From Escherichia coli (GTDB lineage: Bacteria; Pseudomonadota; Gammaproteobacteria; Enterobacterales; Enterobacteriaceae): a stretch of 64,000 nt of DNA. Under the pieces are notes generated by a model. That model was not told where the DNA came from. It saw nothing but the letters and a program-made list of their open reading frames with translations, and did no database searches. Position numbers and translations under genes: made by a program. Each line of letters starts with the position of its first letter. Position 1 is the first letter of the stretch. The stretch lies in assembly GCF_030013595.1 (NCBI RefSeq), contig NZ_CP122768.1. One strand, 5' to 3'. Of this stretch, positions 19,759-54,181 are shown one piece after another.

Positions 19759-20055
19759 TCAGGTATGATCAAATGAGGATTTGTTACTGTCATTTAGTTG
19801 CTTCACTGACATATTCTGCGAACAACATGCCGAACGTCGTAAATATGACCAGTCAATATCAGGACGAAGTTCTTCGCACAGAACCTCACCTCTTGTTGCA
19901 CGTTCAATTGCTGGACATCTCTCGGCAGGCAATTGACGTACCCCTTTGATCCATTGATTTACGCTTGGAGGTGATACACCTAAAAGCCTAGCCATTGCTG
20001 ATTGCCCACCGACAACAGCACAAGCTTGCTTGAATGAATAGTTCTCTTTTTTCAT
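19759..20055 (-). CDS. Cro-like HTH regulator (YdaS-like)
   Basis: 98 aa; divergent from repressor gene across an operator-rich gap; GGAG RBS. Confidence 0.6.
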   Translation of the reverse strand: MKKENYSFKQACAVVGGQSAMARLLGVSPPSVNQWIKGVRQLPAERCPAIERATRGEVLCEELRPDIDWSYLRRSACCSQNMSVKQLNDSNKSSFDHT

Positions 20056-20178: not shown

Positions 20179-20655
20179 ATGCTTAGTGGTAAAGACTTAG
20201 GCCGAGCGATAGAGCAGGCCATTAACAAAAAAATCGCATCGGGATCCGTCAAATCAAAGGCGGAGGTCGCACGCCACTTCAAAGTCCAACCACCATCAAT
20301 TTATGACTGGATTAAGAAAGGCTCTATAAGTAAAGATAAACTTCCAGAATTATGGCGTTTCTTTTCTGATGTTGTTGGTCCAGAGCATTGGGGGCTTAAC
20401 GAATACCCCATACCAACCCCCACCAATTCAGATACAAAAAGTGAACTTTTAGATATAAACAACCTTTATCAAGCAGCCTCTGATGAAATAAGAGCGATTG
20501 TAGCTTTCCTGTTATCTGGAAATGCTACAGAACCAGATTGGGTTGACCACGATGTTCGCGCCTACATAGCAGCGATGGAAATGAAAGTGGGTAAGTATCT
20601 GAAAGCTCTAGAATCTGAACGGAAAAGCCAGAACATCACAAAAACTGGAACTTAA
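20179..20655 (+). CDS. Prophage repressor (CI-like, no peptidase domain; RacR-like size)
   Basis: 158 aa with N-terminal HTH-like region; flanked on both sides by the same operator motif. Confidence 0.55.
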   Translation: MLSGKDLGRAIEQAINKKIASGSVKSKAEVARHFKVQPPSIYDWIKKGSISKDKLPELWRFFSDVVGPEHWGLNEYPIPTPTNSDTKSELLDINNLYQAASDEIRAIVAFLLSGNATEPDWVDHDVRAYIAAMEMKVGKYLKALESERKSQNITKTGT

Positions 20656-20750: not shown

Positions 20751-20793
20751 TTAGGCATAGCCTATTGACAATCAATTAGGCATTACCTATAGT
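20751..20793 (+). promoter_or_regulatory. OL/PL-like: two operator sites overlapping a near-consensus sigma70 promoter
   Basis: TTAGGCATAGCCTAT and TTAGGCATTACCTAT; TTGACA (20765-20770), 17 nt spacer, TATAGT (20788-20793). Confidence 0.6.
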
Positions 20794-20892: not shown

Positions 20893-21126
20893 ATGACGGC
20901 AGGGTTCAACTTTAACTATGCAGCAGGTTTTTGTTCCGCCACCCCGGCGTTAAGGGGAAATGAGGTCAGCATGGATACTATCGATCTTGGCAACAGCGAA
21001 TCTCTGGTATGTGGCGTGTTCCCCAACCAGGACGGCACGTTCACTGCGATGACGTATACCAAAAGCAAAACGTTTAAAACCGAATCTGGCGCGCGTCGCT
21101 GGCTGGAAAGAAACTCAGGTGAGTGA
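20893..21126 (+). CDS. Hypothetical early-left protein (start uncertain)
   Basis: ORF; alternative ATG at 20971. Confidence 0.3.
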   Translation: MTAGFNFNYAAGFCSATPALRGNEVSMDTIDLGNSESLVCGVFPNQDGTFTAMTYTKSKTFKTESGARRWLERNSGE

Positions 21127-21127
21127 T

Positions 21128-21259
21128 ATGGATTTCGACACAATCATGGAAAAGGCTTACGAAGAATACTTCGAAGGCCTTGCCGAAGGCGAAGAAGCTC
21201 TCAGCTTCAGTGAGTTTAAACAGGCGCTTTCCAGCTCGGCAAAATCTAACGGCTGATAA
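21128..21259 (+). CDS. Small acidic hypothetical protein, 43 aa
   Basis: ATG with AGGTGAG RBS; below ORF-track cutoff. Confidence 0.3.
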
Positions 21260-21285: not shown

Positions 21286-21504
21286 ATGCAGAAACGAGAA
21301 CCCGTCATCATCGCGCCAGACTATACCGATGATGAACTTTATGAGTGGATGCGCCAGAAAATTAATGCAGCGCAGGATCTGAAATGGGCCAATGAAGCCA
21401 GGGCTAAGCAGGCTGAAAATCTGTCCGCTCTGGAGCAGGATATCACCAGGCTGGAAAAAGCAGCGGCATTAAGCATTGCCAGAATGATTTCATACCCGCG
21501 TTAA
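21286..21504 (+). CDS. Hypothetical early-left protein
   Basis: 72 aa ORF with GAGGA RBS. Confidence 0.4.
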   Translation: MQKREPVIIAPDYTDDELYEWMRQKINAAQDLKWANEARAKQAENLSALEQDITRLEKAAALSIARMISYPR

Positions 21505-21639: not shown

Positions 21640-22071
21640 TTATCTTGAGTTCATCCAGAACTTATTATTGCAAGCGAGGCAAAAAGTACGAAAATGAGCA
21701 TCAAAGCGCATTATTTCCATTGGCTGAAGTACAGATATTACCTTTTTTCCAAAACATTGTGGGCAAAGATACACAGTTATCTCAGTATCGCCTATAAATT
21801 GCTTCTTGGAATATACAAGGGTTCCAGAATCAAGCTTGTTAAGCTTGTAACCTTCCGCCTGTCGCTGAAAATCTTCTGTCTCTGCAATTTTTGCTTTGAG
21901 ATGCATTATCTCTTCATCACGAAAGCGGATCGCATCGCAAAGAGAGAAGCATTCCGCCTGAAGCGTGATTAGTTTGTTCTGAAGTTCAATAGTTGCGGCT
22001 TTAACTTCTGCATCCGTTTTTGCGTCATTAATAACCTTAGCGAGACCAGCTGTCTCCTTTATCGCAGCCAT
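21640..22071 (-). CDS. Coiled-coil protein with C-terminal zinc-ribbon, encoded antisense to the early-left operon
   Basis: Probable start MAAIKETAG; CPQCFGK...CLACNNKF motifs; AT-rich segment. Confidence 0.4.
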   Translation of the reverse strand: MAAIKETAGLAKVINDAKTDAEVKAATIELQNKLITLQAECFSLCDAIRFRDEEIMHLKAKIAETEDFQRQAEGYKLNKLDSGTLVYSKKQFIGDTEITVYLCPQCFGKKVISVLQPMEIMRFDAHFRTFCLACNNKFWMNSR

Positions 22072-22411
22072 AGCCGCTGACAGTTCTGCTATCACGTTGA
22101 GTACTCTTCTCGTTGTTGGGGATATCCGGATTATACAAATTTCTTGTTGTTGGGGAATAACAGGAACCACCTCGCCTGACGTGGTTAAAAGCAGGCACAC
22201 AACGCGAAAGCGTACGGCGAGGTAGCTGGTTCATAGATAGCCTGTCGTTAAATTTTCGTCGACCGTGCACTTCCGGTTGTGGCAATCCGCGAAATGGCGC
22301 GGCGGTAAGTATGGCTGGGTTATCCTTACCCCATTAGTGGCACCGGGTTGTCAGGTTGACCATACGCTTAAGTGACAACCCCGCTGCAACAACCCATGTT
22401 GATTACCTTTT

Positions 22412-22622
22412 GGCGGGTATCCGTTTTTTGTTTTCCCTTGTGATACCCGCCCTTTTTAAAGTGAATTTTGTGATGCGGTGAATGCGGCTCAGCGCACGCG
22501 GAACAGTTAAAAAGGCCAGTTGACTTCCGTATTGGTTCTTATGGGTGGGTTCTCTGTATCCGGCGTTAATTATTAACTGGTTAACGTCACCTGGAGGCAC
22601 CAGGCACCGCATCACAAAATTC
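22412..22622 (+). promoter_or_regulatory. Nested inverted repeats in a 570-bp non-coding gap
   Basis: 10-bp perfect IR GGCGGGTATC/GATACCCGCC (22412-22421, 22442-22451) followed by T-run; 18-bp perfect IR GAATTTTGTGATGCGGTG (22463-22480) and its reverse complement (22605-22622). Confidence 0.4.
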
Positions 22623-22640
22623 ATTGTTGAGGATGCGATA

Positions 22641-22823
22641 ATGGAAACGTTATTACCAAACGTCAATACGTCTGAAGGTTGTTTTGAAATTGGTGTCAGA
22701 ATCAGTAACCCTGTATTTACTGAAGATGCCATTAATAAGAGAAAACACGAACGGGAGCTATTAAATCAAATATGCATTGTTTCAATGCTGGCCCGTTTAC
22801 GCCTGATGCAAAAAGGACGATGA
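22641..22823 (+). CDS. Small hypothetical protein
   Basis: METLLP start with GAGGA RBS. Confidence 0.3.
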   Translation: METLLPNVNTSEGCFEIGVRISNPVFTEDAINKRKHERELLNQICIVSMLARLRLMQKGR

Positions 22824-52934: not shown

Positions 52935-53945
52935 TTAGATATGGGTAACGATTTCTTTAATCAGCGGCGGACCTTTAAAAATAAAACCAGAATAAATTTG
53001 CACCAGTGAGGCCCCCGCAGCAATCTTTTCACGCGCAGCGATAACCGAGTCAATGCCGCCAACACCGATGATCGGTAAGCGACCGTTTAATTCCTGTGAC
53101 AAGCGGCGAATAATTTCTGTGCTTTTTAACTGAAGCGGACGACCACTTAAGCCACCGGTTTGATCACAATTTTTCATTCCCTGAACCAGAGAACGATCGA
53201 GCGTGGTATTGGTTGCAATAACGCCATCAATATTATGGCGAACTAAACTATCGGCAACCTGGATCAATTCTTCTTCAGAAAGATCCGGCGCGATCTTCAC
53301 TGCGATCGGCACATATTTATGGTGCATCGCTTGCAAATCATTTTGCTTATTTTTAATCGCGGTTAAGAGATCATCCAGCGCTTCGCCATATTGCAGTGTG
53401 CGTAGTCCTGGGGTATTCGGCGATGAAATATTGATGGCGATATATCCCGCATAAGCATAGATTTTTTCCATACAAATCAGATAGTCATCTTTACCCTGCT
53501 CCACCGGCGTATCTTTATTTTTGCCGATGTTAATACCCAGGACGCCATCATAATGGGCTTTTTTTACGTTCTCTACGAGGTTATCAACGCCAAGATTATT
53601 AAAGCCCATACGGTTGATCAAACCTTCGGCATCTACCAGACGAAAGAGACGCGGCTTGTCATTACCTGGCTGTGGACGTGGCGTGACGGTACCGATCTCG
53701 ATCGATCCAAATCCCATCGCGCCTAACGCGTCAATGCACTCCCCGTCTTTATCAAGACCGGCTGCCAGACCAAGCGGATTTTTAAACGTCAGGCCCATGC
53801 AGTTAACAGGTTTCGCAGGCACTTTCTGCCGCACCAGTGCTTCAAACGGCGTTCCTGTAATACGGCGTAATTGCTGAAAAGTAAACTCATGAGCACGCTC
53901 TGGATCGAGCTGGAAAAGGGCTTTACGAACGAAGGGGTAGTACAT
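52935..53945 (-). CDS. pyrD: Dihydroorotate dehydrogenase (quinone)
   Basis: 336 aa from [21 protein letters not shown]. Confidence 0.95.
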
Positions 53946-54181
53946 GAACTCTCCTGGATTCCCGGTGTGCAAACCGGGGGCGTATTATGTGCGAGTTCGG
54001 ACCAAAAGGGAATTGACCTGTGGCAATAAATAGCAAACGTTTTCTTATTGCGCTTTTTTTATGCTTTTTTTGGCTTTTCTTCCTCAGATAAATCATTTCG
54101 ACTCGCGGACGCCCTCTGTCAGACTGACCGAATTGTTATCAATGTTAACAAAACAAGAACAATTGGTTATAAGGAGAGAGT

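Follow-up and report, generated by a model that had tools for sequence, protein, structure and literature searches.

Within a 64,000-nucleotide stretch of Escherichia coli DNA (contig NZ_CP122768.1 of assembly GCF_030013595.1; hereafter the window), two inverted repeats occupy the untranslated intergenic leader between dicF and dicB, in the leftward early (pL-type) operon of a Qin-like lambdoid prophage. Very probably, an intrinsic terminator together with processing by ribonuclease III (RNase III) gates and matures the toxic dicB message at this site. The overall architecture of the operon leader is already known from strain K-12; what is new is that the position of the small RNA (sRNA) DicF, here called the slot, holds an undescribed non-DicF allele, and that the RNase III stem closes a domain of the STnc100 type. 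Homology, position, folds and covariation come from the present analysis, and termination, an RNase III-dependent 3′ end and an rnc-dependent signal come from the K-12 literature.

The locus is recognized as the dicF-dicB leader from the identities of its DicB and YdfA to those of K-12, from the neighboring genes and from the homology of an 801-nt query around the repeats. This query is 100% identical to E. coli K_EC180 (NZ_CP062203.1), where dicB and ydfC are annotated, and matches 11,318 places in 4,718 of the 5,426 complete E. coli genomes, with a dicB annotation under almost all of them; the region is 82-88% identical to about 3,800 genomes, K-12 Qin among them, and the query also matches lambdoid phages. 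The operon order is ydfA-ydfB-ydfC, the leader, dicB, a DUF1482 gene, an exonuclease gene and an integrase gene. An earlier note on this DNA, made from the sequence alone, had described a 570-bp non-coding gap; the interval is a transcribed operon leader, measuring about 545 nt from the start of a minus-strand open reading frame (ORF) at 22095 to dicB.

Two adjacent inverted repeats

A repeat finder returned two pairs of arms with 100% complementarity. The first pair comprises 10-nt arms (22412-22421 and 22442-22451) around a 20-nt spacer, and both the finder and the sequence bear out the 10-bp repeat with a 20-nt loop and a T-run that the earlier note had placed at 22412-22451. The second pair comprises 19-nt arms (22462-22480 and 22605-22623) enclosing 124 nt; it had been reported as a perfect 18-bp pair, which is real, with arms drawn one base short on each side. 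Its right arm lies close to the start codon, as had been seen, at a distance of 17 nt from the ATG at 22641 and not 18. The left arm of the second repeat begins 11 bases past the first repeat, and the two stand side by side, not nested as first described. As RNA, the second repeat forms a 21-bp helix (22460-22480 with 22605-22625), extended by one A-U and one G-U pair. With up to three mismatches allowed, the 19-mer occurs at these two sites only in the 64 kb (0.03 expected), and the search for further copies of the repeat that the earlier note had proposed, carried out within the window, found none.

Folding agrees with the repeat search. The first hairpin has a predicted energy of -18.5 kcal/mol (z -5.7), the 170-nt second unit -71.5 kcal/mol (z -5.9) and the whole 261 nt -97 kcal/mol (z -6.2), and in each case no shuffled sequence was as stable. 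Both repeats are confirmed as real and lie far beyond chance.

The flanking repeats had also been likened to a retron msr/msd locus, with the remark that no reverse transcriptase is present. The remark stands, while the likeness is superficial and extends only to the layout of inverted repeats around a structured non-coding stretch. Neither the ORF list nor the RefSeq annotation holds a reverse transcriptase within several kb, the neighbors being dicB, DUF1482, a 3′-5′ exonuclease and an integrase; no retron-type Rfam model matches, and the region is fully explained as a dicBF leader. The probability of a retron is negligible, and this candidate was rejected on the absence of the enzyme.

The DicF slot carries a non-DicF allele

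Hairpin 1 (22412-22451, plus strand), designated allele 'H3', consists of a stem of 10-12 bp (GGCGGGTATC / GATACCCGCC) and a G/U-rich loop of 15-20 nt. It is followed by a U-tract (C + TTTTT; 22452-22457, plus strand), where the short RNA species is expected to end and which is kept in nearly all slot alleles. The hairpin aligns column for column with the 53-nt DicF of K-12 Qin and of phage Tritos, with almost invariant flanks, and shares the location of DicF in a dicBF-type operon, with ydfC before it and dicB after it. Upstream of it, alignments and the allele catalogue define a 5′ module 'B' (AACCCATGTTGATTACCTTTT; 22386-22411, plus strand), which stands in place of the DicF 5′ seed TTTCTGGTGACG and is presumed to be the single-stranded 5′ part of the slot RNA.

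The Rfam DicF model (RF00039, gathering score 48 bits) matched nothing in a 4-kb search at E ≤ 1 or in a 141-nt search at E ≤ 10. The K-12 slot scores 76.7 bits with this model and other, intermediate slot alleles score 34-44 bits, which places the window allele at the far end of a homologous series. Retained from DicF are UUUGGCGG-N-AUC-N-GUUU on the 5′ side and CCGCCC-UUUUU on the 3′ side; replaced are the DicF 5′ seed UUUCUGGUGACG, which serves xylR pairing, and the loop with the 3′ stem containing ACUCCG, through which DicF pairs with the ribosome-binding site (RBS) of ftsZ. Judged by its sequence, the RNA in the DicF slot here is not DicF.

Hairpin 1 is nonetheless the intrinsic terminator of the slot, in a version other than DicF. 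All slot alleles retain the stem base GGCGG/CCGCC and the U-run; 7 of the 10 stem pairs are G-C, C + UUUUU follows directly, and the minus strand has no T-run after the stem. Compensatory changes keep the stem across the slot alleles, with covariation among its inner pairs (GUAUC/GAUAC, CAUCAG/CUGAUG, AUAUCAG/CUGAUAU), while the loops vary in sequence and length.

Slot alleles were surveyed in IMG/VR viral contigs by a scan anchored on the conserved flanks, which yielded 124 loci. About 100 of these hold canonical DicF or a near variant of it; 'H3' occurs seven times, together with two close variants, and at least four further hairpin bodies (at least six in all) are combined with two 5′ modules, A and B. 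Among the 5,426 complete E. coli genomes searched, the canonical slot occupies 6,699 places in 3,974 genomes, and the window allele 238 places in 203 genomes, or 162 at a coverage of at least 80% (about 3-4%); a further allele, 'H4', is present in 108. Carriers of the exact window allele include E. coli K_EC180, RM8352 and 2013C-4465. Slot alleles of the window type and of the H4 type carry no annotation in those genomes, and the window allele, as DNA or as RNA, had no match in the literature text searched. The Pas sRNAs of enteropathogenic E. coli were considered as a candidate identity, compared by position alone, and rejected: PasA, PasC and PasD adjoin lysis genes, and PasB belongs to a structural operon.

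Pairing predictions against ftsZ were of limited use. RNAduplex runs against the ftsZ start returned long, unrealistic duplexes in which even true DicF was not separated from shuffles. In a qualitative and weak cofold comparison, DicF opens its own hairpin over the ftsZ RBS, and the window allele leaves its own hairpin in place and gains only -3.6 kcal/mol; a shuffle control is not meaningful here, because shuffled RNAs lose their own hairpin.

In addition to acting as a terminator, hairpin 1 might serve as a trans-acting, Hfq-dependent sRNA with its own host targets and with the loop or 5′ tail as seed, a tentative possibility that would complement the gating function proposed above. The allele occupies the slot of a proven Hfq sRNA with the hairpin and U-tail architecture retained, is kept in 162-203 of the 5,426 genomes with a loop core, CGUUUUGUUUU(U)CCC, shared by its sub-variants, and belongs to a discrete series, built from two 5′ modules (A, B) and six or more hairpin bodies, that looks like seed diversification. 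Selection on the terminator with loop drift, however, predicts the same pattern; moreover, the single-stranded 5′ part is very short, the weak cofold analysis predicts no ftsZ-type pairing, and the literature text searched does not contain the sequence.

As a separate observation, the terminator tail at 22451-22459 (CCTTTTTAA) is perfectly complementary over 9 nt to an arm of the downstream RNA domain at 22507-22515 (TTAAAAAGG; helix P3 below). This complementarity is specific to the version of P3 in the window and could represent an alternative fold in the read-through RNA, or chance.

A covarying RNA domain closed by the long repeat

The second repeat closes an RNA domain of about 160 nt with four branches and a closing helix, P1, and the minimum-energy and centroid folds agree on all five helices (all on the plus strand). 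P1 joins the left arm (22460-22480) to the right arm (22605-22625) through 21 bp as RNA and ends 4 nt ahead of the Shine-Dalgarno sequence; 99.4% of its cells are paired, three pairs are changed on both sides and seven on one side only, all of the latter as wobble or Watson-Crick pairs, and one position shows the series C-G, U-G, U-A. P2 (22484-22499) is a nearly invariant hairpin, GCGGC-UCAGC-GC-A-CGC, paired in 98.7% of cells. P3 (22500-22561) has the conserved base GGAACAG / CUGU-A-UCC, and two of its pairs are changed on both sides; its apical arm, version 'V2' in the window, is exchangeable, and relatives carry six or more unrelated versions of it. P4 (22562-22588) is an 11-bp hairpin with the loop UUAAC, 99.4% paired and with two pairs changed on both sides, and P5 (22590-22604), CCUGG-AGGCA-CCAGG, forms part of the family signature UCACCNGGAGGCACCNGGCACC. 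In the minimum-energy fold, the GAGG of the Shine-Dalgarno sequence pairs weakly with CUUU of the terminator tail.

These values derive from an alignment of 31 distinct homologues, each located ahead of dicB or of one of two sorts of kil-type gene, taken from E. coli prophages, Shiga toxin (Stx) phages, Escherichia albertii, Citrobacter braakii and one metagenome-assembled genome. Overall, 97.4% of the cells form standard pairs. Double-sided changes affect seven pairs; shuffles give 0.9 ± 0.9 (none of 500 attains seven), and sliding the partners by 1-3 columns gives 0-2. The non-Watson-Crick stem cells read as G-U in 177 cases and as A-C in 16 on the plus strand, an excess indicating that the constraint acts on the plus-strand RNA and not on DNA. 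The folding and covariance check on homologues that the earlier note had called for thus comes out in favor of structure, with a stable fold and paired changes above the shuffles. Its suggestion of a structured regulatory RNA or attenuator proves essentially right, in the form of a terminator hairpin followed by a covariation-supported domain whose closing helix is cut by RNase III in K-12. Stx phages and phage Evi carry the same unit of hairpin and domain ahead of their kil genes, which fits a general gating of cell-division inhibitors.

The same data bear on the other suggestion of the earlier note, a small inverted-repeat element. An element acting at the DNA level, either a miniature inverted-repeat transposable element (MITE) or a protein-binding palindrome bounded by the 19-bp arms, would account for perfect terminal inverted repeats around 124 bp and for the position of the unit at a boundary joined to different downstream genes (dicB and the two kil-type genes). 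It is extremely unlikely, however: the arms have no further copy in the 64 kb, the flanks AAAG / TTGT are not a target-site duplication, all homologues are syntenic with a shared module extending well past both arms, the internal helices covary, and the wobble bias lies on the plus strand. A MITE or an element derived from an insertion sequence was rejected on the uniqueness of the arms in the window, the missing target-site duplication and this RNA-strand bias.

A sub-threshold relative of STnc100

In the Rfam scan, which the earlier note had also proposed, the DicF and retron-type models gave no match, and STnc100 (RF02076) matched 22464-22618 with 33.5 bits (E 9.4e-5; model positions 21-154), below its gathering score of 47. 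The corresponding leaders of K-12, Tritos, Stx phages and other dicB/kil loci score 28-34 bits with this model, and a sample of canonical STnc100-type copies scores 48-138 bits. On sequence grounds, we regard the window domain as a sub-threshold relative of STnc100. The core signatures of the family are present, namely GGUGAAU followed at a distance by UCACCNGGAGGCACCNGGCACC and closed by a GGUG/CACC helix. A scan for the shared core UCACCNGGAGGCACCNGGCAC, with one genome per species, found at least 120 loci; the genera among the matches listed include Enterobacter, Citrobacter, Klebsiella, Pantoea, Erwinia, Serratia, Rahnella, Cedecea and Salmonella, along with others.

Both RNAs share the multi-branch architecture, GGUGAAU, a P2 loop of the form CUNNGCG with a bulged A, and UCACCNGGAGGCACCNGGCACC. 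The window P2 shares its loop consensus and its bulged A with the STnc100 hairpin CCCC-CUNNGCG-G-A-GGG, but has another stem. Rfam's alignment treats P2 as mismatched; within the dicB/kil subfamily P2 is almost invariant. In our own reading, P2 would be the STnc100 hairpin in another register with compensatory changes. P5 has a U-A pair in the window where canonical STnc100 has G-C, also a compensatory change; taken together, the differences in P1, P2 and P5 are compensatory, and the inner P1 pairs covary. P1 differs in length, with 21 uninterrupted base pairs in the window, about 10 + 10 bp around a bulge in the kil leaders and 4-11 bp in 95 distinct STnc100-type copies. The terminator proper to STnc100 (model positions ~155-206 of an sRNA of ~200 nt) is absent from the window, where GAGGA and ATG follow the right arm, and in the dicB/kil leaders the 3′ part of the model is left unmatched or is forced onto the dicB start. 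Genomic position differs as well: the window domain lies in the early-left operon ahead of dicB or kil, whereas STnc100 lies in the late region near Q, transfer RNA (tRNA) genes, stx and lysis genes. Published work describes STnc100, together with the related PasD, as expressed, Hfq-associated prophage sRNAs of the late region (bioRxiv 10.64898/2026.05.13.724894).

Loci with the STnc100 core UCACCGGGAGGCACCCGGCAC often hold several copies in tandem, with a terminator behind each copy and with tRNA genes and isrI in between (for example L203:398-1555, L174:271-817 and L158:10163-11958, among loci L128-L247). One group of such loci has the same flanks, TGAGGnnAnCCTCA ... CACACGCCAC, across many genera.

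The STnc100-like domain (22481-22604) may alternatively be the functional unit itself, a stable RNA binding a host or phage factor or acting as an sRNA; P1 would then be no more than its closing helix, and RNase III would serve to release the domain and not to regulate dicB. GGUGAAU and UCACCNGGAGGCACCNGGCACC are kept across many genera in at least 120 loci, and the window element matches the model of a family whose members STnc100 and PasD are reported as expressed, Hfq-associated sRNAs. We consider this doubtful, as the interior of the domain is depleted in K-12 wild type relative to the rnc mutant, which suggests that the excised piece is degraded and does not accumulate; in addition, the dicB/kil subfamily has no terminator of the kind that follows canonical STnc100 copies, and a P1 of 21 bp, against 4-11 bp elsewhere, points to a context-specific processing role.

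RNase III processing in K-12 and the proposed mechanism

The classical substrate of RNase III is about two turns (~20 bp) of perfect duplex RNA. P1 consists of 21 consecutive pairs, of which 19 are Watson-Crick pairs of the repeat arms, with one added A-U and one G-U. In K-12, by the account of Faubladier 1990 given in Balasubramanian 2016 (PMC5069750), termination at the slot hairpin produces the 53-nt DicF, and the 3′ end of a 72-nt DicF is made by RNase III acting on the full-length messenger RNA (mRNA). The same terminator also ends a 1,146-nt ydfABC-dicF transcript (PMC10448788, PMC5069750). Mapped on NC_000913.3, the extra 19 nt of the 72-nt species as cited there end at the 10th nucleotide of the K-12 left arm. 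An rnc-dependent site labeled 'dicF-dicB' is listed at NC_000913.3:1649470 (Gordon 2017, PMC5371410, Table S1), 8 nt inside the same arm. Ragunathan 2023 (PMC10448788) describes a transcript stopping at dicF and a read-through transcript covering dicB-ydfD, and confirms roles for RNase III and ribonuclease E. By the 72-nt end in that secondary account and the rnc-dependent RNA-seq signal, the K-12 homologue of P1 is an RNase III site.

For the window, we propose the following sequence of events. Transcription from a repressor-controlled promoter would pass ydfA-ydfB-ydfC and the conserved leader until hairpin 1 and the U-run stop it; once processed on the 5′ side, the terminated transcript would yield a short RNA at the DicF position, and dicB would stay silent. 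Polymerases that read through would transcribe the four-branch domain of ~160 nt, whose ends would pair as the 21-bp P1 and present a substrate to RNase III. The enzyme would be expected to cut P1 after about 22471 and, on the opposite strand, near 22612-22616. Cleavage would leave, upstream, a 3′-extended slot RNA of the '72-nt DicF' type that reaches about 19 nt beyond the terminator and, downstream, a dicB mRNA whose new 5′ end lies about 28 nt ahead of the start codon; its short leader would be unstructured and would no longer carry the helix adjoining the RBS. Because the uncut helix ends 4 nt ahead of the Shine-Dalgarno sequence and GAGG is weakly paired, cleavage may raise dicB translation, as for the lambda N leader.

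Several points weigh against this account. At 15-20 nt, hairpin 1 has a long loop by the standards of intrinsic terminators, and a simple terminator scan, whose loop limit is 8 nt, missed the hairpin for this reason. Most of the homologues are closely related, and for those taken from IMG/VR the search pattern itself prescribed the initial 15 nt of the left arm, so that the covariation in the outer half of P1 rests on few genomes, such as that of C. braakii. The evidence for cleavage belongs to the K-12 homologue, and from it we infer cleavage of the window allele. The position of the 72-nt end is second-hand, reaching us through a paper citing Faubladier 1990, and Ragunathan 2023 (PMC10448788) instead has RNase III make the 5′ end of a 190-nt species; there may be two RNase III sites, or two differing accounts of the 1990 paper. 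The signal of Gordon 2017 (PMC5371410) consists of 26 reads in the rnc mutant against 0 in the wild type and is a coverage-ratio peak, not a mapped end. Finally, the effect of cleavage on the translation or stability of dicB is pure inference.

A structured nascent RNA in an early operon could also be an antiterminator of the HK022 put type, by which polymerase would pass terminators further downstream in a phage without an N gene. The ORF list shows no N-like gene between the promoter and ydfA, and the element is conserved and highly structured. Against this explanation, known put RNAs measure about 70 nt and have two stems (PMC9378689), the interval 22-38 kb of HK022 contains no STnc100-like match (E ≤ 1) and no core motif (up to three mismatches), and the element sits downstream of the very terminator that it should suppress. 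The candidate was rejected as highly improbable, and terminator gating with RNase III maturation is retained as the preferred explanation.

Operon and prophage context

A predicted sigma-70-like promoter (TTGACA-17-TATAGT, 20765-20793) would drive ydfA-ydfB-ydfC. On the plus strand, ydfA (20971-21126) encodes a YdfA 94% identical to that of K-12, a ydfB-like ORF (21119-21256) is assigned by position and the ORF list only, and ydfC (21286-21504) is annotated in the 100%-identical record NZ_CP062203.1. The slot is preceded by a conserved structured leader (22190-22385, plus strand; about 200 nt), defined by alignment and predicted fold, which is almost invariant among the window prophage, K-12 Qin and phage Tritos though neighboring genes diverge, and which is predicted to be highly structured. 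The homologous K-12 stretch holds the RNase III site that yields the 190-nt DicF precursor (Ragunathan 2023, PMC10448788). The Shine-Dalgarno sequence GAGGA (22629-22633, plus strand) lies ahead of dicB (plus strand, ATG at 22641 to stop at 22823; 60 aa), whose product is 92% identical to K-12 DicB and which is annotated in the identical RefSeq record. Downstream of dicB, the ORF list and RefSeq annotation give a DUF1482 gene in the ydfD position, a 3′-5′ exonuclease gene and an integrase gene.

The repressor-like (20179-20655, plus strand) and Cro-like (19759-20055, minus strand) genes are unrelated to K-12 DicA and DicC, and the operon under these swapped immunity genes is still 85-95% identical to Qin. 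By this comparison the prophage carries an immunity-module swap relative to K-12 Qin, and a repressor unrelated to DicA implies a phage of different immunity type.

A minus-strand ORF of 151 aa (21640-22095) runs antisense to the operon between ydfC and the conserved leader, with a longer GTG-started version reaching 22200. Its product has a coiled-coil-like N-terminal part and C-terminal CxxC...CxxC motifs and matches phrog_1244 (E 8.5e-51); Pfam and PADLOC searches gave no match. The ORF is absent from K-12 Qin and is a possible moron gene. Just 5′ of its annotated start are two direct repeats of 16 nt, TTCTCGTTGTTGGGGA (22107-22122) and TTCTTGTTGTTGGGGA (22141-22156), set 34 nt apart, which could form an operator or promoter element of this ORF, or encode part of its N-terminus if the GTG start is used.

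Two further features overlap the dicB start. A weak sigma-70-like match (TTGACG-17-CATTAT, 9/12) on the minus strand at 22638-22666, if active, would produce an antisense RNA over the dicB RBS and P1, and is probably a chance match, because the region has fewer promoter-like sites than its own shuffles. The dicB frame is open upstream to a GTG at 22545, which would give a putative product of 92 aa in all, its extension running through the 3′ half of the RNA domain. Elsewhere, the sole Rfam match above a gathering score in the window is a PyrD leader at 53940-54013 (minus strand; 97.9 bits). This match places the right-hand portion of the window in chromosomal DNA near pyrD, with the integrase gene, at about 26.9 kb, as the end of the prophage.

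Implications

DicF and DicB are textbook examples of prophage-encoded inhibitors of cell division, and their locus is a model for the rewiring of host physiology by cryptic prophages. The basic known picture of the dicBF operon is unchanged by the present analysis, which adds that a recurrent, unannotated fraction of E. coli prophages holds a different RNA in the DicF slot. Since the slot RNAs differ, the presence of a dicB operon does not imply that of DicF, and such loci are undercounted or misinterpreted by surveys that rely on Rfam or BLAST. The slot alleles also constitute a natural experiment on the evolution of sRNA seeds atop a terminator, and the finding that the RNase III stem ahead of dicB closes an STnc100 relative gives a concrete context to a functionally unexplained family. 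More speculatively, the DicF position may be a modular sRNA slot, in which a terminator base and an RNase III/STnc100-like processing platform stay fixed and prophages exchange the 5′ tail and the apical loop, and the window allele a new Hfq-dependent sRNA with host targets other than ftsZ. We think this rather unlikely; if true, it would link the widespread STnc100/PasD family to RNase III-gated expression of cell-division toxins.

Comparison with known systems

The closest known system is the dicBF operon of K-12 Qin. The two have in common the gene order (ydfA-ydfB-ydfC, the long leader, the slot hairpin, the domain, dicB, a ydfD-like gene and the exonuclease gene), the terminator base, the U-run and the position of P1 relative to dicB, and the leader and P1 domain are about 87-95% identical. 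They differ in the slot, where the RNA body is replaced and the TTTCTGGTGACG seed, the ACUCCG loop and the Rfam DicF match are all missing from the window; in P1, which is perfect in its 19-nt arms in the window and has two G-U pairs in K-12, making the latter the lesser duplex; and in the P3 arm, whose window version differs from that of K-12 and is 14 nt longer. The minus-strand ORF inserted between ydfC and the leader and the immunity repressor unrelated to DicA further separate the window prophage from Qin.

A second comparison is offered by the lambda N leader and the early intergenic sites of T7, which are RNase III processing sites in phage early transcripts. Like them, P1 is a long duplex in a polycistronic early mRNA just 5′ of an RBS, where cutting parts the RNAs on its two sides and can change downstream translation or stability. 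Unlike them, the helix in the window closes a large, conserved multi-branch domain and not a simple hairpin.

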